Below, one piece after another: positions 33,209 through 46,358 of a DNA stretch of 64,000 nt. Source of the stretch: Candidatus Helarchaeota archaeon (lineage in GTDB: Archaea; Asgardarchaeota; Lokiarchaeia; Helarchaeales; RDOG01); contig JAHPZH010000001.1 of the NCBI GenBank assembly GCA_019058315.1, positions 64,001 to 128,000 of the forward strand. The letters run 5' to 3'. Below the pieces are notes generated by a model. That model saw only the letters and a list, made by a program, of their open reading frames with translations, was not told the origin of the DNA and did not search any database. The first letter of the stretch is position 1. Every line of letters starts with the position of its first letter. Position numbers and translations under genes: made by a program.

Positions 33209-34963
33209 ATGTCGACTAATCAAGAGAATGCAGTTGAAGTAACGGATTTATTGAAATATTATAATCTTTCGTCTGGTGAAAGATTAACAGCATTAGATTC
33301 TATATCTTTTAATTTAAAAACTTCCGAAATCGTAGGTATAATAGGTAAATCTGGCGGAGGTAAAACTACCTTACTTAGAATATTAAGAGGGGTTGAACCT
33401 TTTAATGGAGGAAAATTCATTCTTCGTGATAAAAATGGTGAAATTATTTTAACTCCTGATTCACCTGAAAGTCTCTTCCGTGAAGCAAAAAAGAAGACAG
33501 TTATACATTTACAACGTTCCTTTGGTCTATGGGCCACAACTGCTTTAGATAATGTAATGAGAAGATTAAATGCTCTAAAGACTGACGATGAAACTGCTCC
33601 ATTACCAGAAGATTATACAAGTGAATATCAAGAGCTGAAGGAGAAAGCCCTTGAAATTTTAGATGCAGTAAAATTAAAACATAAAGCGGATCAAGTTGCT
33701 CCTGTTATGAGTGGTGGGGAAAAACAACGTCTAGTGTTAGCTCGACAATTAGCAATTGCAGGTTCCGAAAGAAATATGGGGAAAATATTGCTTCTGGATG
33801 AACCTGTTACTATGTCTGACCCATTAACTAAACAAATTTCATTAGATTATATAAAGGAATTAAGAAACAAGTATAATCTTTCTATTCTTGTAGCCAGTCA
33901 CCACCCCCAGTTATTGGAGTACTTAAGTGATAGAATAATATGGTTAGAAAAGGGTAAAATTATCAAGATAGGAGATCCAAAGGAAATTGTCAAAGGATTT
34001 TTAGATAAAATGCCTGATCCAATTCCTTTAGAACCTCTTAAATCAAAAAAACCGATAATATCAGTTAAAAATGTTTCTAGGAAATTTTATACGCCTGAAG
34101 TGTTAAAGTTAGAGTTCGATATGTCAAACATAAATTTTGAAGTTTTTGACAGTGAAATTCTGGGTATAATAGGTCCTTCTGGAATTGGAAAAACAGTATT
34201 ATTAGAATTACTTTCTGGAGTAACTTTACCAAAAGATGGCGAAGTACTTTACAATATTATTGGTAAAAACGTCAATATCGGTGTGTTAGGAGAAGAAGCA
34301 ATGATGTCAAGACGTAATATAAGTTATGTTAGACAAGAACTTTCGCTTACTCATAATGCAATAGTTAAAGATTTAGCTGCTGCTACATTAGGTCTTAAGG
34401 GAGAAAGAGCACTCTATAATGCCAGAAAAAAAGCGAAAGAACTTAATATTCGTGAAGAGATAATTGATGTTCTTCACCGGTTAAGTGATCTTCCCGATTC
34501 TGAGGTGAATATAAGATTGGAAAAACTTGGTTTAGATAAAAGTATAATTCATGATTTGTTTCCAATACCTCCATGGTCAGCTATTTCAGACATAGTAATA
34601 CCTATTTTTAACGAATTTGATCTCCCTTCAAAAATATTAGAACGTAAAACGCAAGAACTTTCTGGCGGTGAAAGTATAAGAGTTGCAATTGCATTAGCTC
34701 TGCTCTCCAGCCCAAAGGTAATTATTTTAGATGAACCATTTGGTGATTTAGATCCTAATACATTACGAAATTTAGCAAATATGATAAAAAGAGTAAATAA
34801 AATGGATGTAACCATAATAATTGTTTCTCATCATACAGAATTTCTTAAAGAAGTCACACATCGTGTTATTTATATGAAGGAAGGAAAGCTTCTTAAAATT
34901 GGAGACCCTGATGAAATTACTAAGGAATTTTTAAAGGATAGTAGTGCAGAATTCATGTATTAA
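33209..34963 (+). CDS. Dual-ATPase ABC protein, AtwA (methyl-coenzyme M reductase component A2)-like, lacking the Zn-binding insert
   Basis: Walker A GKSGGGKT and GPSGIGKT; HLQRSFGLW and MSGGEKQRLVLARQLA resemble AtwA (MLQRTFALY, LSGGEKQRVVLARQLA); no TM segments and no adjacent permease. Confidence 0.75.
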   Translation: MSTNQENAVEVTDLLKYYNLSSGERLTALDSISFNLKTSEIVGIIGKSGGGKTTLLRILRGVEPFNGGKFILRDKNGEIILTPDSPESLFREAKKKTVIHLQRSFGLWATTALDNVMRRLNALKTDDETAPLPEDYTSEYQELKEKALEILDAVKLKHKADQVAPVMSGGEKQRLVLARQLAIAGSERNMGKILLLDEPVTMSDPLTKQISLDYIKELRNKYNLSILVASHHPQLLEYLSDRIIWLEKGKIIKIGDPKEIVKGFLDKMPDPIPLEPLKSKKPIISVKNVSRKFYTPEVLKLEFDMSNINFEVFDSEILGIIGPSGIGKTVLLELLSGVTLPKDGEVLYNIIGKNVNIGVLGEEAMMSRRNISYVRQELSLTHNAIVKDLAAATLGLKGERALYNARKKAKELNIREEIIDVLHRLSDLPDSEVNIRLEKLGLDKSIIHDLFPIPPWSAISDIVIPIFNEFDLPSKILERKTQELSGGESIRVAIALALLSSPKVIILDEPFGDLDPNTLRNLANMIKRVNKMDVTIIIVSHHTEFLKEVTHRVIYMKEGKLLKIGDPDEITKEFLKDSSAEFMY

Positions 34964-36872: not shown

Positions 36873-37565
36873 TCATACCTTTAAATCAAAAAACAAGTCA
36901 ATTCCATATTTATCATAAAGCTCATCAATCAGGTAAATCAATGGGTTTAAATGACTTTTATAACGATCCCAAACAAGATGAGTTGTTTTTTCTCTTCTTT
37001 GTGCAAAATGTAAGAATCCCTCGCTATCAAAACATGGATCTTTTGGTCGGGGCGTTACTTGAATCGTAGGAGGAACATCTGGATATTCTGCATTGAATAA
37101 AATTTTCGAAACTCTTACCACACCATCTCTCCATTTAGATGATACATAAATACCCTTTTCCGGGCGTTTTTTATCTATGTATTTCCATTCACTACCGTTT
37201 ATTTCCACTATGTATTTTAGATGGGTTTTAAACAACTCAGTTCCACTTTTAATTTTACTAGAAATACTCCCACCTATGGGTTCCGGAATCCAGTATATCT
37301 TATCTGTGTCTTGTGCTATTTCCCCTATCGTGTTGCGAAGAGATATTGGTACTTTTCGACCTTGTGTAATATAGTAAAGTTTTATTGTTAGCATGTTAAT
37401 TCCGACGTTTCTAACATTGCCATATCCTAAATTTAAAACGTCTAAGATTCGATCATTATATTTCCATAATAATCTACTGGCAACATCCCTGATAATCTCA
37501 TCTTCTTGAGATTCAACATAATCTGTGGTCCCAATAAGTGGATTAACCCAAGTTATTTCTTTCAA
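36873..37565 (-). CDS. Ubiquitin-like domain (internal PIGG) fused to an atypical E2/UBC-fold domain
   Basis: N-half is homologous to 38522-38830 (DKIYWIPEPIGG vs DKIYWEPEPIGGH); C-half is homologous to 38870-39232 with ILFNAEYPDVPP and HLNPLIYLIDE. Confidence 0.75.
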   Translation of the reverse strand: MKEITWVNPLIGTTDYVESQEDEIIRDVASRLLWKYNDRILDVLNLGYGNVRNVGINMLTIKLYYITQGRKVPISLRNTIGEIAQDTDKIYWIPEPIGGSISSKIKSGTELFKTHLKYIVEINGSEWKYIDKKRPEKGIYVSSKWRDGVVRVSKILFNAEYPDVPPTIQVTPRPKDPCFDSEGFLHFAQRREKTTHLVWDRYKSHLNPLIYLIDELYDKYGIDLFFDLKV

Positions 37566-37637
37566 TGTGTTTCCGTCTTTAATTTATTATCAATTATTTA
37601 GAAATTAAAATTAATATTTATAAATTAGGTTTTTAAT

Positions 37638-38405
37638 TTGATGAAAAGATTTTTCTTTGGTCCTGTTCTTTCTCGTAGATTGGGTTTTTCTTTAGGGATT
37701 GATATATTACCCGATAAAAAGACTTGTACTTTTGACTGTCTTTACTGTGAAATAGGAAAAACTCGACGAGTTACCTCCCCAAAAACCCGTTCTCCTTTCC
37801 TAATAGAAAATAAAAAGAATTTTGAATTACAATTAAGAAATATCTTATCTCAAGATATATTAATCGATACATTAACATTTGCAGGATATTCGGGTGAGGC
37901 AACATTAAATAGTGAATTAAATACATTTTTAAACATTACAAAATCTGTAAGATCTGACCTGCATAAAGAAAATATCCCAATATCCATTTTGACTAATTCC
38001 TCAACAATTAATTTTCCTGAAATTAGAAAAATATTAATGAATTTTGATAATATAGTTGCGAAATTAGATGTTGGAAATCAAGCTTCTTTTATGAAGGTGA
38101 ATCGTCCACATTTTTTAGTTCCACAAATTTCTGATATTATAAATGGTTTAAAGCAATTAAGGGAGGAGCTTGATAAGAATCGACTCGTTATTCAGACTCT
38201 TTTGTTTAGTGAAAATAATGATAGAAAAAACATTGATTCATTAATTGAAGCTTACAATATTATCAATCCAAATAAAATTCAACTTTACTCGATTGCCCGT
38301 CCACCCGCATATGCCGTAAAAAAAATAGATGGGCTTCAATTGGAACAGATAAAAAAGAATATGCAAGATGTATTAAAAACCAATATTAAAATTGAAACTT
38401 ATTAA
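37638..38405 (+). CDS. Radical SAM protein (COG0731-like Fe-S oxidoreductase)
   Basis: FGPVLSRRLGFSLGID, CTFDCLYC, SGEATL, LTNSS, AKLD, VNRP, YSIARPP. Confidence 0.88.
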   Translation: MMKRFFFGPVLSRRLGFSLGIDILPDKKTCTFDCLYCEIGKTRRVTSPKTRSPFLIENKKNFELQLRNILSQDILIDTLTFAGYSGEATLNSELNTFLNITKSVRSDLHKENIPISILTNSSTINFPEIRKILMNFDNIVAKLDVGNQASFMKVNRPHFLVPQISDIINGLKQLREELDKNRLVIQTLLFSENNDRKNIDSLIEAYNIINPNKIQLYSIARPPAYAVKKIDGLQLEQIKKNMQDVLKTNIKIETY

Positions 38406-38521
38406 AAAGATATTTGTAGTATTGATTTTAAAATTTCATTAAACAAGAAAAACCAGAAAAATAAAAAAACATAATTTCTTTTATCCATTAATAAATTAAC
38501 TTATATTATGGTGCAAAATAG

Positions 38522-38830
38522 ATGCCAGAAATGACATATGTCTGCCCGCAAATAGGTAGTACAGATTATTTAGATTATGAAGAAGATACGACCTTCGAAG
38601 ATCAAATAAATGAACTAAAAGAGAAATATTTACGAGATATTCTTGATTACGTTCAGCAATTTCGAAATATACGTCAAAATATAGGATTAGATCAAATTAC
38701 TGTAAAGATACACTATATTGATGCTGAAGGTATCAAACAAACAATTGGACTTAAAACTTACGTTAAGGCAATGGCTGAACGTCATATTGATAAGATATAT
38801 TGGGAACCCGAACCCATTGGAGGGCATTAA
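38522..38830 (+). CDS. Ubiquitin-like (beta-grasp) protein ending PIGG-H
   Basis: Strand/helix pattern beta-beta-alpha(DTTFEDQINELKEKY)-insert-beta-beta-beta; di-Gly masked by one residue; adjacent to an E2-like gene. Confidence 0.72.
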   Translation: MPEMTYVCPQIGSTDYLDYEEDTTFEDQINELKEKYLRDILDYVQQFRNIRQNIGLDQITVKIHYIDAEGIKQTIGLKTYVKAMAERHIDKIYWEPEPIGGH

Positions 38831-38869
38831 ACCAAACTTTTAATATAAGGGTATATCTAGAGGAAAAAA

Positions 38870-39232
38870 ATGCAGCAAACTTCTAAACAAATCTTTGCAA
38901 GTCATATTTACGATTTGACAGTTCGACCCGGTTATTATCGCTCTACATGGAAACTAATTAATAAAAAAATACCCTTAAAAGGAGCTTTCGGTCATTTTAT
39001 GGGCAAGGATTTTCGAGTAATTGTAATAAAAATCTTATTTAATTCAAAATATCCCGAAAATCCTCCAAAAATTATTAGCACTCCTCCTATCCGCGATGTT
39101 TGTTGGGATAATAAGGGTGTGTTACATTGGGCTAGATACGGGGGAGAGTTTGTATGGAGTAAATATAAAGATCACTCCAATCCATTAATTTATGTCGCAG
39201 ATGAAATTACTGAAAAATATAAAACCATGTAA
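38870..39232 (+). CDS. Atypical E2/UBC-fold protein
   Basis: ILFNSKYPENPPKIISTPPIRDVCWDNKGVLHW aligns without gaps to the UBC core [33 protein letters not shown]. Confidence 0.75.
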   Translation: MQQTSKQIFASHIYDLTVRPGYYRSTWKLINKKIPLKGAFGHFMGKDFRVIVIKILFNSKYPENPPKIISTPPIRDVCWDNKGVLHWARYGGEFVWSKYKDHSNPLIYVADEITEKYKTM

Positions 39233-39256
39233 AAAAAAAATTGATTTTTAGATCTA

Positions 39257-40834
39257 TTACTTTTTAATTATTATTGCCACTAACACTAGAATTACTATCG
39301 CCATAGCACCAATTATTATCAAGAGAATAAGAGGATCAATTGGAAAACCCGCACCTGTCGGTATAGGTATAAAATTATCCATAGGTTCTGTAGACACTAA
39401 TGAAACTTTTTGTGCATATATATCATAATCACTTAAGCTTCTATTATCCTGCCACGTTATGATAGCAACTCCAGAACTAACGTAAATAATCTCATGATTT
39501 TCTTGCAAACCATATTCTGTACATACTGGCAGACCCTTACCAACATATTGCAAAATACCATTTTTATCGAGCATTTGTGCATAGATTGATCCATTAGCAT
39601 CTTCTTCTTTATCTATCCAAGAGATAAATGAATTTCCTGAGGAGTCGCAGCAAATCCTAGACTGTTGTTGATCACTGGGTGAAGTACAAACAGGGGTACC
39701 ATTATTTCTCCATAATGTGGTGCCTATTGGGTTAATTTTTTGAGTATAGATATCCTCCTCATAAATATTTCGTAAATCCTGCCATGTAATAATTGCATTT
39801 CCCTCACTATCACAGCAAATTTTTGGATAGAATTGGCTATATTCTGCTGTACAAATTGGTGTGCCATTGAGAGTCCAATAAACAGTACCAGTTGAGTCGA
39901 TTTTTTGTGCATATATATCTGTATATGTACCGTTTCTATTATCCACCCAAGTGATAATTGCATTACCAGAACTATCACAGCAAATATCAGGCCAATATTG
40001 ACTGTCAGTTGCATTACAAATTACAGTACCATTGTCTTGCAATTGTGAATGACCTGTAGAATTAATAAATTGACAATAGATATCGTTATCTGATGTTGTC
40101 ATATTTCTATAGTCTTGCCAAGTAATAATTGCGTTTCCTGCACCATAAACACTAATTTTTGGAAATGTTTGGATGTTTATAGCATTGCAAATTATTTTTC
40201 CGTTAGTTGTCCATTGGACAACTCCACTCGAATTAATTCTCTGGGCATGGATATTAGATGTTGCAAATTCATCATTTATCCATGTAAGAATCGCACCGCC
40301 TAAATTATCGCTGCAAATTTCTATCCTTGATTCATCATTAGGCAAACCAGTAATTTGCACACCGTTGGCAGTCCATTGCGTAATCCCGTTTGCGTCCACT
40401 CTTTGAGCTTTAATATTTTGAGTATCTTCCCATGCGATGATTGCCCCCCCAGAACCATCAGAACATATCTGGGGAAGAGTTTGAGAACCAGGAGAGTTAC
40501 AAATTAATGTGCCGTTAACATCCCATAATGGATTCCCATTTGAATCGATTCTTTGAACATAAATACTAGAAATGTCTCTGGAATCCGCCCAAGTAATAAT
40601 TGCACCACCAGTTCCATCACTGCATATTTCAGGATTATATTGGTCTTGTGGCGTTTGTACACATACAGGTGTACCATTAGCTGCCCATTGCGTACTTAAA
40701 CCATTAGCCTTGAGTTTAGATTTCTCATCAATTTTTAAAAGTAAGACATTTTGATTGCTAAACCCTGTATATGAATTTATAGCTAAAATGGAAAACATCA
40801 AGATTGGGATTAAAATTAAAAACCTTTTCTTCAT
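39257..40834 (-). CDS. Secreted beta-propeller protein with C-terminal TM anchor
   Basis: About seven repeats W..NGT.IC....Q..P.ICSD..GGAIITW.D.R...DIY.Q.I; signal peptide MKKRFLILIP; C-terminal hydrophobic helix followed by KK. Confidence 0.85.
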   Translation of the reverse strand: MKKRFLILIPILMFSILAINSYTGFSNQNVLLLKIDEKSKLKANGLSTQWAANGTPVCVQTPQDQYNPEICSDGTGGAIITWADSRDISSIYVQRIDSNGNPLWDVNGTLICNSPGSQTLPQICSDGSGGAIIAWEDTQNIKAQRVDANGITQWTANGVQITGLPNDESRIEICSDNLGGAILTWINDEFATSNIHAQRINSSGVVQWTTNGKIICNAINIQTFPKISVYGAGNAIITWQDYRNMTTSDNDIYCQFINSTGHSQLQDNGTVICNATDSQYWPDICCDSSGNAIITWVDNRNGTYTDIYAQKIDSTGTVYWTLNGTPICTAEYSQFYPKICCDSEGNAIITWQDLRNIYEEDIYTQKINPIGTTLWRNNGTPVCTSPSDQQQSRICCDSSGNSFISWIDKEEDANGSIYAQMLDKNGILQYVGKGLPVCTEYGLQENHEIIYVSSGVAIITWQDNRSLSDYDIYAQKVSLVSTEPMDNFIPIPTGAGFPIDPLILLIIIGAMAIVILVLVAIIIKK

Positions 40835-40949
40835 TTTTAACAAATCCAATTTTTATTAAAATATATCAAATATACTGAGGTTATAACATATAAATTGGAG
40901 TAATAGTTCATAGAGAAATAGAATAATTAAGTTAGAAAGTCGTGTAGAA

Positions 40950-42023
40950 ATGCGAGTAATTATAGATTCGTCGGTAATTGAATCATGTAAGCAAACAATT
41001 CAAGAATGTTATGGTGAAAAAGCGTTTAAAGAAGTAGGGGGGTATATTTTAGGAATGTTTGACGGCGAAAATTTCCAAGTTAAATCCCTTTATCTTGATA
41101 AATATGCTGAATCGACTTCTATCAGAATTAAACTAAGCGTTGATGCATTCCATGAAGTTGAGGAAATACTTTCCCAATCTCCTGAAATGATGTATATTGG
41201 GACATGGCATGTTCATCCTGGGACAGATAAACCCGCATACTCAAATGTTGATGTTTCAACTCTATTTTTAGAACGGGTAATTATAGACACAGATAATCCT
41301 GAAAGTTTGAAATGCCCAAAGATTCATATAATTTTTAATAATTCTCTAACTGAATATAGTTGTTATACTATGGATATATTTTTTAATTTTTTATGCGAAC
41401 CTCTTGATTCATCTGTTGCCAAAAATTTAGTTGAAGCTGAATTGCTTGAAATTGGGCTAGATGCCCTTACGGAATCTAAAACCTTGCTAAAACTAGAAAC
41501 TCTTGAAAGTTATATCAATTTACAAAAAAATATCGAAGAAGTGTATAATAATCTCGATTTAATTTCTGACCAAATCAATTTTGCACTTGACTTTTTTAAT
41601 GAACTTGAATGGTATAATAAAGTTGAAAATAAAATCGAAAAAATAATTAAGAATGAGATTAAAAATGGAGAAAGAATTGGAGTAATCTCTTCTGAAAACG
41701 AGAAAAAAATCGAAAGCTTGAAATATAGACCTAAGAATATAAAAAATTCATATACAGATGGATCTTTAGTAGGTTTTTGGGTATTATTTCCATACGAAAG
41801 TATCAGCGATATGTTTTTGAAAATTTTTTATGCTAATTTCTTCAAAAAAATTGAGACTGAACCTGGAGATGTCTTCTTATTCTTCCTAGTTCAAAAAATT
41901 AAGGAAGAAATCATGATTAAACCGTTTTTTTTAAATTTCACATCATTTGAAGGAATATCATATATAGAATTAGAAATGACTTTGATTGAGGATGACAATG
42001 AAAATAATGTTTCAGAATCCTGA
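40950..42023 (+). CDS. JAB/MPN+ (JAMM) metalloprotease with C-terminal extension
   Basis: EVGGYILG...GTWHVHPGTDKPAYSNVD fits E...HxH...SxxD; overlaps the E1 gene. Confidence 0.88.
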   Translation: MRVIIDSSVIESCKQTIQECYGEKAFKEVGGYILGMFDGENFQVKSLYLDKYAESTSIRIKLSVDAFHEVEEILSQSPEMMYIGTWHVHPGTDKPAYSNVDVSTLFLERVIIDTDNPESLKCPKIHIIFNNSLTEYSCYTMDIFFNFLCEPLDSSVAKNLVEAELLEIGLDALTESKTLLKLETLESYINLQKNIEEVYNNLDLISDQINFALDFFNELEWYNKVENKIEKIIKNEIKNGERIGVISSENEKKIESLKYRPKNIKNSYTDGSLVGFWVLFPYESISDMFLKIFYANFFKKIETEPGDVFLFFLVQKIKEEIMIKPFFLNFTSFEGISYIELEMTLIEDDNENNVSES

Positions 42024-43077
42024 TACGGGTGAAACAATATATATCGAGGATGAGGAGCTTCTTATCAGAGATATTGCCAATAAAATAATGAAAGAATACA
42101 ATCTAGAAAAACCACCAATCTTCTTCACCCTTATGAAAGAAGACCCAGTATCAGAAACTTATCTAGAAGAAGATGATAAATTAAAAACAATTAATGAAGA
42201 AAAATTGGATGTAAAGACACCAATATGGTGGCGATCGTCAGAAATTGATCTAGATTTAATTTATAAACTTCGAACAGAACGCTATGATAGATCGGGTTAT
42301 GAGCTAGAAAAAATCGGAAAAACCAAGGTATTAATTGCAGGTGTGGGATTATTAGGAGCGGATATTGCGTTTGATTGCGCAGTTTTAGGAATAAAGGACC
42401 TTACAATAATTGATTATGGGTCTGTAGATTGGTTTAATATCTATCGACAAAGTCTCTATTCCAAAAAAGATGTATTTAAATCGAAAGTTGAAGTGGCAAA
42501 AGAAAATCTCGAGGATATGGGGGGTGTAAATGTTAAATCATTAAAAATTGAGATTCCAAGTTTTATTTATCTGCCAGAAGATAAAAGTATAATACAAAAT
42601 TCCATTTTAAAAATTGAGCCTGAAGTTAAAAAATGTGATATAATAATTACTGCTCTTGATACATTCAGCGCTAGAATGATAATGCAAACTTTAGCTTTAG
42701 CAAATGATAAAATCCTTATTAATACGGCGGCTGGTCTAGTAGGTGGGGTAGTTCAATTAGTGAGAATTAAGCAAAATGATCCTTGCTTGGCATGTGGTAT
42801 TTATTTTGATAGAAATCAAGATGTGGGTGCGTGCACTTTGGCATCGTTTGGTACTCCTAAAATCATATCTGGAATTACAATGGAAATTTTGACAAATCTG
42901 ATTGAAGAAAGAGAAATCAAATATAACCATTTTAAATATATTCCCCAAACTTACCAAATAGAACAAAGTAATTTTATAAAAGGCAAAGAGTTCTGTGATT
43001 TTTGCGATAGGGAGAAAGGAATTATATTTAAATATAAAAATGGAGAAAAAAAAGCCCTAATTGATTGGTTATATTGA
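41998..43077 (+). CDS. ThiF/MoeB/E1-family adenylyltransferase with N-terminal Ubl-like domain
   Basis: RYDR, VLIAGVGLLG, IIDYGSVDWFNIYRQ, SKVEVAK, ALDTFSAR, Zn pairs PCLAC and CDFC, putative catalytic Cys in VGACT; start at ATG 41998. Confidence 0.88.
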   Translation: MKIMFQNPDTGETIYIEDEELLIRDIANKIMKEYNLEKPPIFFTLMKEDPVSETYLEEDDKLKTINEEKLDVKTPIWWRSSEIDLDLIYKLRTERYDRSGYELEKIGKTKVLIAGVGLLGADIAFDCAVLGIKDLTIIDYGSVDWFNIYRQSLYSKKDVFKSKVEVAKENLEDMGGVNVKSLKIEIPSFIYLPEDKSIIQNSILKIEPEVKKCDIIITALDTFSARMIMQTLALANDKILINTAAGLVGGVVQLVRIKQNDPCLACGIYFDRNQDVGACTLASFGTPKIISGITMEILTNLIEEREIKYNHFKYIPQTYQIEQSNFIKGKEFCDFCDREKGIIFKYKNGEKKALIDWLY

Positions 43078-43214: not shown

Positions 43215-44060
43215 ATGGTTGAAATTACATTAACCCCTAAAAAAGATGCATTCTCTTCAAAAATTCCTCTTGAAGCAGAAATTATTACAACAGATAATCT
43301 CGCTGGAAAATCTATTGAGGAAATAAAAAAACTGCCAGTATGGAAAGGAAATCGTGAAAAAAATCTAGGAGAATTTTTCGATGTAAAAGGAGGAAAAGCA
43401 GATGCTCCAGCAGATATAAAAATAATCATCGATGGTGATATTCCGATGGTAAAAGGGATTGGAACAAAGATGACTGCTGGTGAAATAGTTGTCAAAGGTA
43501 AAGCAGGAATGCACACAGCAGATCTATTAAATGGTGGAAAAATCACAGTGGAAGGAGACGTAGATGACTTCTGCGGCTCTGAGATGAAAAAGGGAGAATT
43601 TATTGTGAATGGAAATGCAGGAAATTACTTTATCGCAGCAGCTAGGGGTAATTGGCAAGGTATGACTGGTGGAAAAGTTGTAGTTAATGGCAGTGTTGGT
43701 TCTGAAATGGCTGCTTGGGTTCGTGGTAAGACGACCCGGATAGAAATCAATGGAAATGTTAAAGGTTTTGCGGCTGTTCATATGCACGGAGGATTGCTTA
43801 TCATAAATGGAGATGTTTTAGATAGATTAGGAGCTGAAATGGCAAGGGGAATTATTATAGTTAATGGAAAATTGGAATCTATTCTACCATCATTTAAATA
43901 TTCAGGGGAAGTGCAAGAGATAGAAGTGAATGAAACTGAAAAAATTACTGGAAAGTATTTACAATTCAATGGTGATTACGCCCAATTAGGTGTAAAATCA
44001 AAATATTTTGGTAGAATTTTCCTCGCTGCGGATAAGAATAAACATTTAATTCCAAAATAA
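43215..44060 (+). CDS. fwdC: Formylmethanofuran dehydrogenase subunit C
   Basis: IPLEAEIIT, LPVWKGNREKNLGEFFDV, GXGXG beta-helix repeats, RGNWQGMTGG, ILPSF. Confidence 0.92.
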   Translation: MVEITLTPKKDAFSSKIPLEAEIITTDNLAGKSIEEIKKLPVWKGNREKNLGEFFDVKGGKADAPADIKIIIDGDIPMVKGIGTKMTAGEIVVKGKAGMHTADLLNGGKITVEGDVDDFCGSEMKKGEFIVNGNAGNYFIAAARGNWQGMTGGKVVVNGSVGSEMAAWVRGKTTRIEINGNVKGFAAVHMHGGLLIINGDVLDRLGAEMARGIIIVNGKLESILPSFKYSGEVQEIEVNETEKITGKYLQFNGDYAQLGVKSKYFGRIFLAADKNKHLIPK

Positions 44061-44145
44061 TTTGCTTTTTTTATAAAATATTATAAATAAAATTAACTTA
44101 ATTATAGTTTAAATATTCTAATTAATTAAAACGGTAGTTAATTTT

Positions 44146-45312
44146 ATGCCAAAACCTGAAAATTGGATACTTATAAAGGTCCACGCTAATACAAAATTAG
44201 ATATTCCAAAGACAAAAATTCCACATCATAAAACTTGCGGGTTTCTTTCAAGAAGATTAAAAAATTTGTTAATGGATTCATTTGCATATGCATTTATTTC
44301 AGCAATAAATGAACCATATTTTAAAGTAGCAATAGGAAAATCTGATGAAGCTTTTGAAAAAAGGTTTTTAAATGTAATCAAGCGAACCTTTTTGAAAGAG
44401 CTAGTATTAGAGGTCTTTAGAAAGGGTGGTTTGGGATATGGTAAAAAAGGATACTTAGAACCACTTCCTTATTCAAAGCCCTACTGGGAGTATGACTTCG
44501 TAAATGCTAAAAGATTCGATGTTGATGGTAATCTAAAGGGTTTTATTGATGTAAAAGTTATTTATATTAATTACTCTTCTGAAAAAAACGTTACAATTGA
44601 AGAATTAGACACCACAAAAATAAAAAGATCGAAAAAAGCTTCAAAAGATGCTCCAGATATATCGCATCCTTTAGGAATATTGCTTGAAGCACCATGGCGT
44701 CATTATTATAAACTAATTGAACAAACTAAAAGAAAGAATGGTGACAAATTAGAGGTTCCATTCGAAATTCTATTCGTTTTAGCACCTTGGTTTGATCAAA
44801 CAGTTGAAGGTGAAATTTTAGATTTATTAGAAGAATATGTGCACCTTGATCATTCTAAAAAATCATTACCTATTCCTTCACAAGTACCTAAATTAATCGA
44901 GAGATATTTCCCTCTTGTTGAAGAAAGACCAGCGAGTTCCGATTGGATTTTGGAAAACTGGAATAAAATTTATGATGTTATTGGTTATGAGGCCGAGAGA
45001 TCTATTAAAGATTTAGAAGGATTTTGGTTATGGGTTTTGGGTGTTGTCGACAAAGGAAAAGCAAAAAAATTCGTGAATGTATACTACGATGATCAAATAA
45101 TGATGAACATTGAAGGAAAAGATACTGCGATCTGGAGCTCTGTGGTTCCCCCACCATATCCGCGAATTTATTCTTCTTATCTTAAAAAGAAAGAAGCTGG
45201 AGAAGACGTATCTCCTCCTGATATCGATCCGGATCATCCAGATTATAATTTGAATAACCATGCAATCGATGTTTTTTCAGATGATGTAAAACCAATAACA
45301 GATTATATTTAG
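44146..45312 (+). CDS. Hypothetical soluble protein
   Basis: 388-aa ORF with normal composition; no family recognised. Confidence 0.7.
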   Translation: MPKPENWILIKVHANTKLDIPKTKIPHHKTCGFLSRRLKNLLMDSFAYAFISAINEPYFKVAIGKSDEAFEKRFLNVIKRTFLKELVLEVFRKGGLGYGKKGYLEPLPYSKPYWEYDFVNAKRFDVDGNLKGFIDVKVIYINYSSEKNVTIEELDTTKIKRSKKASKDAPDISHPLGILLEAPWRHYYKLIEQTKRKNGDKLEVPFEILFVLAPWFDQTVEGEILDLLEEYVHLDHSKKSLPIPSQVPKLIERYFPLVEERPASSDWILENWNKIYDVIGYEAERSIKDLEGFWLWVLGVVDKGKAKKFVNVYYDDQIMMNIEGKDTAIWSSVVPPPYPRIYSSYLKKKEAGEDVSPPDIDPDHPDYNLNNHAIDVFSDDVKPITDYI

Positions 45313-45344: not shown

Positions 45345-46358
45345 TTAACATAGCTTATATGCTGAAATTACAACTTCTAGAGCTTTTTTACCATCTATAG
45401 CATTTGCAACTGGTTCTTTATTTTCTAAAATACATTCAACAAAATGGTCTGTCATTTTTTTCTTAACATTTTCCATAAACATATCTGGTTTTAGTGACTG
45501 AACTAATTCATTTCTTTTTAATTTCTTTGGAAAAAATTCGATTTTGGGTTCAGATTTATAATTCAATGCTTGTAAACTTATTATACCATTGAATCCATGG
45601 ACCTCGATAATATTAGATGGAAGATCACACCAACTTGTTTCAAGCTCGCATATAATACCGCTCTTAAATTTAAAAACTACACTTGCGACATCTTCCCAAG
45701 TCATTTCTTTACAGAAAGTTCCCATAGAGGCTCCTGTCAGCTCTGAGATATCACCAAACAACCATATTAATGTATCAATATGATGAATTCCTAAATCCAA
45801 TAAGACTCCTCCCCCAGCTTTTACTTTATCAAAGAACCATCTATCTTTACTGCTTGCTCTCCAAGAAGTATAAGGTCCTTTATGAGAAAATCTTGCCCTT
45901 ACAAATGAAATTTCTCCCAGAACTTCTTTATCAATAATTTCTTTTAAAATTTGATATGCAGTCCAAAACCTCTGATGAGCTGCATACATAAATATTATTT
46001 TTGCCTTATTTACAGCAGCTATTATCTTATTTGCATCTTCAAGATTTGTGGTTAATGGCTTTTCACAAAAAACATGTTTCCTTGCTTCTGCTGCAGCTAT
46101 AGCCATTTCAGCATGTAAGTAATTTGGCGTACAAATAACAACAGCATCAATATCTTCCTTTTCAAACATTGTATTATAGTCTGTATAATATGATGTCATT
46201 TCAAACTTTTTAGCAAATTTTTCTGCATGTTCTTTAGTACGTGATGTCACACTAACTAGTTCAACATTTGGATTCTGATTAAAAAGTCCAGTATTTTCGT
46301 AAGCAACTGCACCGGCCCCTAAAATTCCAAAACGAATCTTTTTCAAAATAAATATCAC
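45345..46358 (-). CDS. Gfo/Idh/MocA family oxidoreductase
   Basis: GILGAG, ICTPNYLH, HVFCEKP, GGGVLLDLGIHHID; true start probably the TTG of LKKIRFG. Confidence 0.93.
   Translation of the reverse strand: MIFILKKIRFGILGAGAVAYENTGLFNQNPNVELVSVTSRTKEHAEKFAKKFEMTSYYTDYNTMFEKEDIDAVVICTPNYLHAEMAIAAAEARKHVFCEKPLTTNLEDANKIIAAVNKAKIIFMYAAHQRFWTAYQILKEIIDKEVLGEISFVRARFSHKGPYTSWRASSKDRWFFDKVKAGGGVLLDLGIHHIDTLIWLFGDISELTGASMGTFCKEMTWEDVASVVFKFKSGIICELETSWCDLPSNIIEVHGFNGIISLQALNYKSEPKIEFFPKKLKRNELVQSLKPDMFMENVKKKMTDHFVECILENKEPVANAIDGKKALEVVISAYKLC

Follow-up and report, generated by a model that had tools for sequence, protein, structure and literature searches.

A predicted ubiquitin-like conjugation module conserved across the archaeal order Helarchaeales

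Here we describe a group of genes from a Candidatus Helarchaeota archaeon that encode ubiquitin-like proteins (Ubls), E2-like proteins, a JAB metalloprotease and an E1 enzyme, and that we propose to form a Ubl conjugation module. The genes lie at positions 36,873 to 43,077 of the window, by which we mean the whole stretch of 64,000 nucleotides that was analysed (GenBank assembly GCA_019058315.1, contig JAHPZH010000001.1, positions 64,001 to 128,000 of the forward strand). An initial annotation of the window had described this locus, and an open reading frame (ORF) scan recovered all six of its genes at the positions given for them. Among them are the free E2-like gene directly 3′ of the Ubl gene that ends in EPIGG-H (ORFs 38522-38830 and then 38870-39232) and the overlapping JAB and E1 ORFs (40950-42023 and 41986-43077). 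The core genes, and the residues within them that bear on the argument, are as follows.

36873-37565, minus strand: Ubl-E2-like fusion, type B paralogue (230 amino acids; ORF scan)
37269-37274, minus strand: Gly98-Gly99 of the fusion, at the end of its predicted beta-grasp (residues 1-99)
37032-37034, minus strand: C178, the sole Cys of the predicted UBC-fold domain of the fusion
38522-38830, plus strand: free Ubl, type A paralogue (102 amino acids; ends EPIGG-H-stop)
38819-38824, plus strand: Gly100-Gly101 of the free Ubl, followed by a single His and the stop
38870-39232, plus strand: free minimal E2-like protein, type A (120 amino acids)
39101-39103, plus strand: C78, the sole Cys of the free E2-like protein, at the putative Asn position of the canonical HPN motif
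39125-39127, plus strand: His86 of the free E2-like protein, at the putative position of the canonical catalytic Cys
40950-42023, plus strand: JAB/JAMM metalloprotease (357 amino acids; PADLOC JAB models, E 1.6e-10)
41986-43077, plus strand: ThiF-type E1 (363 amino acids; Pfam ThiF, 3.3e-31)
42832-42837, plus strand: Cys283-Thr284 of the E1, in the crossover loop, invariant

The E1 ORF was called from a TTG at 41986, and aligned orthologues begin at its Met5 (ATG 41998), which is likely the true start; the overlap of the JAB and E1 genes is 38 nucleotides from the TTG and 26 nucleotides if translation starts at the ATG. The locus had been described as lacking an E3, and in agreement with this neither RING, HECT nor UQ_con domains had a match in the ten ORFs scanned between 36308 and 45312, with ORFs 33209-34963 and 45345-46358 lying outside the scan; the counterparts of these two ORFs at L019, the locus of a close syntenic relative, carry only ABC-transporter and GFO/IDH/MocA oxidoreductase domains. 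Pfam covers the E1 strongly, the JAB weakly and the two small families not at all. Low-scoring Pfam matches of the Ubl (BET, DNTTIP1 and others, E >= 0.002) were set aside as noise from its helical insert. In public annotation of metagenome-assembled genomes (MAGs), genes of the family appear as 'hypothetical protein' and 'ThiF family adenylyltransferase', and we found no published description of the family in the literature on Asgard and ATG7, HD-CE, Helarchaeota ubiquitin and JAB/E2-like operons.

The opposite-strand fusion had been read as a paralogue of the split pair, and pairwise comparison bears this out. Its N-terminal half shares 42% identity with the 102-amino-acid Ubl (E 5e-22) and its C-terminal half 41% identity with the 120-amino-acid E2-like protein (E 4e-26), similarities that at the sequence level are far beyond chance. 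The split Ubl and E2-like genes share one reading frame, with 39 nucleotides between them and the stops TAA, TAA and TAG, and the free E2-like gene has its own GAGG ribosome-binding motif before its ATG. Given the paralogous halves and the single shared reading frame, the split pair can be viewed as the fission counterpart of the fusion; the fused form is the common and probably the ancestral state. The Gly-Gly sits exactly at the domain junction of the fusion and is at least 90% conserved in an alignment of 18 fused homologues (alignment A1), in which YPxxPP and NPL are invariant. Free Ubl orthologues, found in all Helarchaeales cassettes, end in PIGG followed by a tail of 1 to about 15 residues. 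Each of the two paralogue types is found fused or split, depending on the genome, and this variation, together with the same-frame split pair, fits two polypeptides that work apart after cleavage.

A further arrangement was observed in six Helarchaeales cassettes, in which the E2-like gene lies in the +1 frame with respect to the Ubl gene, with an overlap at the Ubl 3′ end.

L032, 7420-7600: E2-like overlap in the +1 frame
L034, 1780-1980: E2-like overlap in the +1 frame
L035, 7660-7860, minus strand: E2-like overlap in the +1 frame
L038, 3440-3640, minus strand: E2-like overlap in the +1 frame
L039, 8180-8440: E2-like overlap in the +1 frame
L040, 3730-3960, minus strand: E2-like overlap in the +1 frame

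In five of the six, the conserved N-terminal helix (I-S-K-x-x-F-A-E-H) is preceded by no ATG, GTG or TTG as far back as the in-frame stop, and the frame of L040 is open beyond the start of the stretch examined. An ATT, ATC or ATA lies 8 nucleotides after a GGAGG or GGGGG that is formed by the Gly-Gly codons. Either these codons double as a Shine-Dalgarno sequence for an AUH start, or a +1 frameshift yields a Ubl-E2 fusion. The window's own E2-like gene, unlike these, has a normal ATG. Two metagenomic proteins, P0032 (659 amino acids) and P0023 (445 amino acids), combine a Ubl, an E2-like domain and further sequence in one polypeptide; P0032 also has a sub-threshold Pfam Prok-JAB match (17 bits against a cutoff of 25) over residues 398-483.

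Predicted folds and catalytic residues

The modifier had been proposed to be a beta-grasp protein and its partner a UBC-fold protein, and the AlphaFold2 model of the fusion, built on alignment A1, agrees on both counts. With a predicted local distance difference test (pLDDT) score of 84, the model places a beta-grasp at residues 1-100 and a UBC fold at residues 103-221. In fold searches the former matched the Ubl of TINCR (Z 8.8), the polycomb ULD (Z 8.6) and Atg12 (Z 8.5), with ubiquitin at a Foldseek probability of 1.0. The latter matched the Plasmodium falciparum E2 2h2y_A (Z 9.3; 104 residues aligned, 2.9 Å), the VPS37A UEV domain (Z 8.9) and E2S (Z 8.8), and ATG3 chains (Z 8.0-8.6) were tied with canonical E2s (up to 9.3). 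Since the Z-scores are middling and the E2, UEV and ATG3 matches tie, they support the fold class and not a subfamily. The E2-like domain is modelled as a minimal UBC core that lacks the last two helices of canonical E2s. When its family profile was run against the PDB, it retrieved only sub-threshold UEV and E2 sequences, always through the YPxxPP strand, with UEV/Mms2-type proteins as the best. The domain had no Pfam match at E up to 1, which gives no sign of membership in Autophagy_act_C, presumably the Pfam family of ATG3 and ATG10 with their HPC active site. Feature and shape searches of the ESM Atlas returned only generic clusters of Ubl-E2 fusions, E2s and ubiquitin, which we treat as leads.

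The putative active site of the E2-like domain departs from that of canonical E2s. At the same spacing from YPxxPP, D-P-C or D-V-C stands in place of H-P-N, and a histidine (His86 in the free protein, His186 in the fusion) stands in place of the catalytic cysteine; profile alignment to the canonical E2s of the same genome gives this DPC/HPN register without gaps, although weakly (hhalign E 0.0055). Each E2-like copy in the window has exactly one cysteine, C78 or C178. Among 67 archaeal and bacterial sequences with the E2-like YPxxxP motif, the C78-equivalent cysteine is present in 64 while its neighbours vary, and the canonical cysteine position is itself variable in the family (H, N, D, K, S or Q). 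In a few distant members the motif is H-P-C, in a register unlike that of ATG3. This pattern suggests that the E2 nucleophile may have been displaced from the canonical site to the position of the HPN asparagine.

The JAB protease has a catalytic domain at about residues 1-145 that carries the JAMM residues E28, H87-x-H89, S98 and D101, all five of them invariant in 10 sequences (alignment A6). A C-terminal domain of about 200 amino acids, with no assigned function, is conserved in bacterial relatives. The protein scores 16 bits against Pfam Prok-JAB, below the cutoff of 25, and shares 29-32% identity with the JABs of bacterial cassettes. In the defence database PADLOC, the best matches of the JAB and the E1 are the CBASS Cap3 and Cap2 models.

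The AlphaFold2 model of the E1 (pLDDT 89.5) has one adenylation domain, at about residues 90-363, preceded at about residues 5-85 by an N-terminal beta-grasp that runs strand-strand-helix-strand-strand-helix-strand. Its motifs include GxGxxG, R154-Q155, K167, D225 and a zinc site of cysteines 267, 270, 337 and 340; Cys283-Thr284 lies 13 residues past the first CxxC. Archaeal and bacterial members that share 25-30% identity all keep the ATP-binding residues, the zinc cysteines and Cys283-Thr284 unchanged (alignment A2). Alignment of the N-terminal beta-grasp to the profile of the Ubl family gave an hhalign probability of 77% (E 2e-5), and by this measure the domain is distantly related to the modifier.

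By both sequence and predicted fold, the closest solved relative of the E1 is the adenylation domain of ATG7. A single-sequence search of the PDB (phmmer) ranked the ATG7 C-terminal domain best (6e-14), and the family profile scored ATG7 at 113 bits (1.2e-31), ahead of UBA5 (103), UBA1 (99) and MoeB (91). Foldseek ranks 1-11 for the model were all ATG7. VIA-align gave ATG7 a Z of 31.0 (269 residues, 2.3 Å), followed by MoeB (27.4), UBA5 (26.4) and UBA3 (25.8); bacterial E1s scored lower, with BubCD at 23.8, BilD (8tyz_A) at 20.3 and Cap2 at 18.7. Cys283 aligns with the cysteine of the ATG7 segment 'CTVTRPG', which we take to be the catalytic Cys507. Alignments to full-length ATG7 begin at ATG7 residue 293, and in the model the ATG7 N-terminal E2-binding domain is absent, the first 85 residues being the beta-grasp. 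We considered whether a likeness to ATG7 might be generic to the E1-like proteins of this AT-rich genome, and rejected this idea: of the seven other E1 paralogues in the genome, three ThiF-family proteins served as controls, and their best matches are UBA5, UBA1 and MccB, with ATG7 coming last or missing from the hits, which argues that the resemblance is not a property of the genome. Among NCBIfam models ThiF ranks above full-length ATG7 for this E1, and we therefore speak of a closest solved relative and not of membership. The protein belongs to the single-domain class of ATG7, UBA5 and MoeB, with an extra N-terminal beta-grasp domain. A complex prediction for the E1 with the free E2-like protein gave no answer (ipSAE 0.02 and 0.00), and is evidence neither way. 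Outside the window, a 270-amino-acid E1 of the same genome (G000:C3:658618-659253, L006) has its best PDB matches in UBA5 (95 bits).

Distribution and genomic context

The Ubl-E2 family is tiny: in an exhaustive HMMER scan of 1.84 billion representative proteins the fusion had only 29 relatives, mostly fused themselves, and a profile search added members from Helarchaeota, 'Promethearchaeota' and Lokiarchaeota MAGs and from one proteobacterial MAG. Among GTDB species genomes, the family is present in all seven of the window's order, Helarchaeales, in none of the 154 others of the class Lokiarchaeia, and in 12 of 400 across the Asgard phylum; members include Helarchaeota Hel_GB_A and Hel_GB_B, a Hodarchaeota MAG and Wukongarchaeum. 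When the six window proteins were mapped onto loci, a cassette of Ubl, E2-like, JAB and E1 genes was found in every Helarchaeales genome (7/7), and a second Ubl/E2 pair, fused or split, was found elsewhere in six of the seven. Other Asgard genomes (Hodarchaeota, Wukongarchaeum and one further genome) carry fusion - JAB - E1 or fusion - JAB::E1. Over the family as a whole, JAB and E1 are fused at loci L015, L016, L042, L044 and L045. The four families were expected to co-occur, and they do so in all Helarchaeales genomes, in three genomes from elsewhere in the Asgard phylum, and in bacteria.

In bacteria the order is an HD-CE protein, the fusion (or split pair), JAB and E1 (or JAB::E1), and the neighbours include NB-ARC NTPase, SMODS, C14 caspase-like peptidase, PIN and transposase genes. 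These are defence-like neighbourhoods, with the HD-CE protein as the likely defence effector. The bacterial JABs and E1s are full-length orthologues of those in the window (28-32% identity; E1 E-values of 3e-51 and 2e-54), and the E1s also carry the N-terminal beta-grasp. The E1 family is discrete, its members scoring at least 284 bits and the next protein 89 bits. In a maximum-likelihood tree of E2-like domains the two Helarchaeales paralogue types are sisters (support 92/84), and the pair has the bacterial HD-CE-linked clade as its own sister group (98/87).

The HD-CE (PF24391) proteins located 5′ of bacterial cassettes hold, in their C-terminal halves, two tandem copies of the E2-like domain that lack the cysteine (per-domain E as low as 2.4e-8 in a search with three sequences).

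L014, 6198-7907: HD-CE protein with E2-like repeats
L015, 6149-8008: HD-CE protein with E2-like repeats
L016, 746-2569: HD-CE protein with E2-like repeats

These repeats tie the cassette to the HD-CE effector in bacteria and suggest that the effector is controlled through the Ubl system. Since the cysteine is missing from repeats that are non-catalytic, the fold does not need it.

The setting in Helarchaeales is different. HD-CE has no match in the genome of the window, no conserved effector-like neighbour stands beside the Helarchaeales cassettes, and the flanking genes are ordinary metabolic ones that vary from family to family; the cassette at L032 is interrupted by a GNAT gene and an aldolase gene. 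A search of IMG/VR viral contigs with the E1 profile found no relative. The initial annotation had set the locus apart from the canonical ubiquitin pathway, and consistent with that separation, three canonical loci with E1 and UQ_con genes lie elsewhere in the same genome, on contigs C2, C6 and C10.

A proposed conjugation pathway and its alternatives

Taking these findings together, we consider it rather probable that the genes constitute a self-contained Ubl conjugation module which, in Helarchaeales, works as a domesticated cellular modification pathway. The conserved residues, the lability between fused and split forms, and the precedent of the bacterial Bub system lead us to propose a relay. 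We infer that the JAB would cut after the Gly-Gly, removing the terminal His of the split Ubl and freeing the modifier from its E2-like partner in the fusion. The E1, a single-domain and probably homodimeric enzyme, would then adenylate the exposed glycine and load the modifier on Cys283, from which it would be transferred to the only cysteine (C78 or C178) in the minimal E2-like protein. The E1 N-terminal beta-grasp may dock the E2-like protein, much as the ubiquitin-fold domain of canonical E1s does, and the E2-like protein would discharge the modifier onto targets without a dedicated E3. Two modifier/E2 pairs, which stem from an ancient duplication in Helarchaeales, would share one JAB and one E1. 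The module shares ancestry with the HD-CE-wired cassettes of bacteria and is inherited vertically in Helarchaeales. The genes and their paralogy, the predicted folds, the intact catalytic motifs and the pattern of occurrence are computational observations; the chemistry of each step, the site of cleavage, the independence from an E3 and the role in the cell are inferred from them.

Several points weigh against this interpretation. The family is known from sequences and predicted structures alone, no Pfam, NCBIfam or PADLOC model matched the Ubl and E2-like proteins, and the E2 assignment comes from a predicted structure with middling Z-scores of 8 to 9.3. The register of C78 and C178 against HPN derives from spacing and weak profile alignments, not from coordinates, and the cysteine is lost in P0023, P0032 and P0034 (the motif reads D-P-S in P0032 and D-P-R in P0023). 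We know of no verified, characterised precedent for a cysteine at the HPN-Asn position. The crossover-loop cysteine occurs also in ThiF (C184) and MoeB (C187), which make thiocarboxylates, and its presence therefore does not prove a thioester relay to the E2-like protein. A candidate precedent, D-P-C as the counterpart of the HPC of ATG3 and ATG10, was rejected since Thr213 of Atg3, not Cys234, corresponds to the canonical Asn position (PMC6689050). Finally, the bacterial relatives point to a role in conflict that could hold in archaea too.

This last point leads to an alternative in which the same machinery acts against viruses or mobile elements, either tagging invader proteins as Bil does or controlling an effector that is not linked to it. 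In support of this, the bacterial homologues directly follow an HD-CE effector that holds two Cys-less E2-like copies, and lie near NB-ARC, SMODS, C14, PIN and transposase genes; occurrence outside Helarchaeales is patchy, as it is for mobile defence genes (12/400 Asgard genomes); the JAB and E1 weakly match CBASS Cap3 and Cap2; and the characterised Ubl operons of bacteria, Bil and CBASS, are antiviral (Corbett-lab papers). Yet the presence of the cassette in all seven Helarchaeales species-level genomes, the old internal duplication and the ordinary metabolic flanks, which differ between families, favour a domesticated pathway over defence, as do the missing HD-CE in the genome, the lack of a conserved effector-like neighbour and the lack of relatives on IMG/VR viral contigs in the E1-profile search. 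It is the absence of an HD-CE effector combined with vertical inheritance that leads us to this reading, and a module fixed in an ordinary chromosomal context does not imply an antiviral role in Helarchaeales. We therefore regard a defence function in this order as possible but unlikely.

Another possible explanation is that the E2-like domain is non-catalytic and, like a UEV or RWD domain, serves the modifier as a removable C-terminal cap or as a chaperone, and that once the JAB has cut, the E1 alone conjugates the Ubl, as UbaA does with SAMPs. The canonical cysteine and HPN are absent, the two C-terminal helices of canonical E2s are missing, the best sub-threshold matches are UEV/Mms2 proteins, and the VPS37A UEV domain ties with true E2s in the fold search. 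Copies of the domain in HD-CE proteins are clearly inactive, and the related E2-like domain of class 6e was at first read as inactive by Iyer et al. (2006). However, that domain, now known from the Bub system, turned out to be catalytic by a non-canonical nucleophile (PMC11601596), and in the present family the cysteine is kept in 64 of 67 sequences while its flanks drift, and the copies that one would expect to be inactive are precisely those that lack it. On this evidence a non-catalytic role for the domain seems improbable.

That the Ubl is instead a sulfur carrier, which yields a thiocarboxylate for thiolation, possibly with a radical SAM protein, and takes no part in protein conjugation, is very improbable: the E1 scores well against the ThiF and MoeB models of NCBIfam (below their cutoffs) and shares their CxxC...Cys layout, and a radical SAM gene stands directly 5′ of the Ubl gene in the window, L019 and L038, yet the E1 has no rhodanese domain in a Pfam scan or in its model, the radical SAM linkage is confined to one Helarchaeales family and is seen in no bacterial or other Asgard cassette, a JAB and an E2-fold partner with a conserved cysteine are always present, and in fold searches the Ubl looks like a ubiquitin-type beta-grasp and not like ThiS or MoaD.

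The conjugation pathway that we favour can be placed among known systems, which Iyer et al. (2006) and the Corbett-lab papers divide into classes 6a/MBL, 6b/CBASS, 6c, 6d/Bil and 6e/Bub. An organisation close to E3-less prokaryotic systems had been suggested from the outset, and the nearest architecture is indeed Type I Bub (6E.1; BubAB, BubCD, BubE) (PMC11601596). In both, the Ubl is fused to a small non-canonical E2-fold domain, the JAB is linked to a single-domain E1 of the homodimer type, with which it forms one protein in many relatives, and there is no RING or HECT E3. The JAB-E1 protein of Type I Bub has been shown experimentally to cleave the Ubl-E2 fusion after Gly, and the system uses an invariant serine, with His/Asp, in the E2 and a tyrosine in the E1, which form oxyesters, with no catalytic cysteine (PMC11601596). 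In contrast, the present family keeps the invariant E1 Cys283 and the conserved E2 cysteine, has a single beta-grasp Ubl and an E1 with an N-terminal beta-grasp, and in fold its E1 matches ATG7 (Z 31.0) better than BubCD (Z 23.8). DUF6527 (PF20137), the family of the serine protease BubE, has no match in the whole genome (94% complete), whereas the control genome, Caulobacter, does match; nor is it listed among the genes of the homologous cassettes in bacteria.

The likeness to ATG7 with ATG10 and ATG3 extends to the E1 adenylation domain, a crossover-loop cysteine at an aligned position, the lack of a separate Cys domain, and a small, non-canonical E2 without HPN; transfer of ATG12, too, needs no E3. 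On the other hand, the N-terminal E2-binding domain of ATG7 is replaced here by a beta-grasp, processing would fall to a JAB metalloprotease and not to a cysteine protease such as ATG4, and the E2-like domain, which has no Pfam match, only ties with ATG3 in the fold search, the catalytic cysteine of ATG3 not being at the HPN-Asn position.

For each of the remaining systems, the locus lacks at least one defining feature. In canonical archaeal operons ubiquitin is accompanied by a UQ_con E2, a RING E3 and an E1 whose insert bears a Cys (PMC5654768, PMC6043591); the Asgard and Caldiarchaeum Ub-E1-E2-RING-Rpn11 operon resembles the window locus in its archaeal host, its Ubl precursor trimmed by a JAB-family enzyme and its expected E1-E2 relay, and the locus matches none of its Pfam families except ThiF. 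Type II CBASS supplies the best PADLOC matches of the JAB and E1, and its Cap2 is called ATG7-like by its authors (Corbett-lab papers), but the locus has no CD-NTase/nucleotidyltransferase, its E1 and E2 are unfused and its substrate would be a true Ubl; the PADLOC E1-E2 model matches only at E 5.6e-13, over the E1 part, and Cap2 reaches only Z 18.7. Bil (6d, BilABCD) is alike in its separate Ubl, E2, JAB and E1 genes, in the pre-processing of the Ubl C-terminus by the JAB and in the lack of an E3, but differs from the present E1 with its single adenylation domain, for which the BilD match is only Z 20.3. The SAMP/UbaA system differs in that an E2-fold partner is always present here, and the E1 scores 33 bits against the NCBIfam model SAMPActivE1UbaA, far below its cutoff of 450.

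Prokaryotic operons of E1, E2, JAB and Ubl genes are the presumed roots of eukaryotic ubiquitin signalling. To our knowledge, only three kinds have been characterised (CBASS Cap2/3, Bil and Bub), all of them bacterial and all tied to conflict. The module would represent a fourth design, with a cysteine relay whose E2 nucleophile sits at the HPN-Asn position, an E1 that carries a ubiquitin-fold domain of its own at the N-terminus, and a Ubl-E2 precursor that is fused or split. It is the first non-canonical module of this kind for which we can show fixation across a whole Asgard order, beside the canonical ubiquitin loci. It would be of interest to investigate an E2 fold with a relocated cysteine, a single E1 and JAB that serve two modifier/E2 pairs, and the domestication of a bacterial defence cassette, with its HD-CE protein and pseudo-E2 repeats, by archaea close to the eukaryotic ancestor. 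A bolder suggestion, which we consider doubtful, is that this E1 family is the closest prokaryotic relative of ATG7 and that the module, with its single beta-grasp modifier that ends in Gly, its minimal E2 that needs no E3 and its homodimer-type E1 with the cysteine inside the domain, is the prokaryotic stock of the ATG12/ATG8-type conjugation systems of autophagy; if so, one Asgard order and a bacterial conflict system would have kept that stock. Given that a review reported no prokaryotic homologues of ATG7 (PMC11354881), the ATG7-specific likeness of the E1 offers a starting point for tracing the origin of the autophagy conjugation enzymes.

Neighbouring genes

Two further genes lie within the locus.

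37638-38405, plus strand: small radical SAM protein (255 amino acids; Pfam Radical_SAM slightly below cutoff)
39257-40849, minus strand: secreted repeat protein (530 amino acids), between the E2-like and JAB genes

Whether the radical SAM gene belongs to the system is uncertain: its position 5′ of the Ubl gene is shared only within the window's own family, and it is absent from all five cassette loci of the other two Helarchaeales families. A viperin-like role was considered for its product and rejected, as the best NCBIfam match, to a viperin-family model, scored only 27.7 bits where the cutoff is 180, and as the linkage is seen in one lineage.

Downstream of the E1, at 43215-45312 on the plus strand, lie genes for a GXGXG-motif protein (281 amino acids) and an unannotated protein of 388 amino acids. 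Neither was found beside the cassettes of other Helarchaeales families; their order is kept in L019, where three small unrelated genes stand between the E1 and GXGXG genes.

The 530-amino-acid gene splits the cassette in the genome of the window and is missing from L019. Its product has a signal peptide and a C-terminal transmembrane helix, and its repeated C-S-D-x-x-G-G-A-I-I-x-W units are beta-propeller-like, with weak matches to the repeats of PDIAV-lipoprotein and Methanosarcina propeller proteins.

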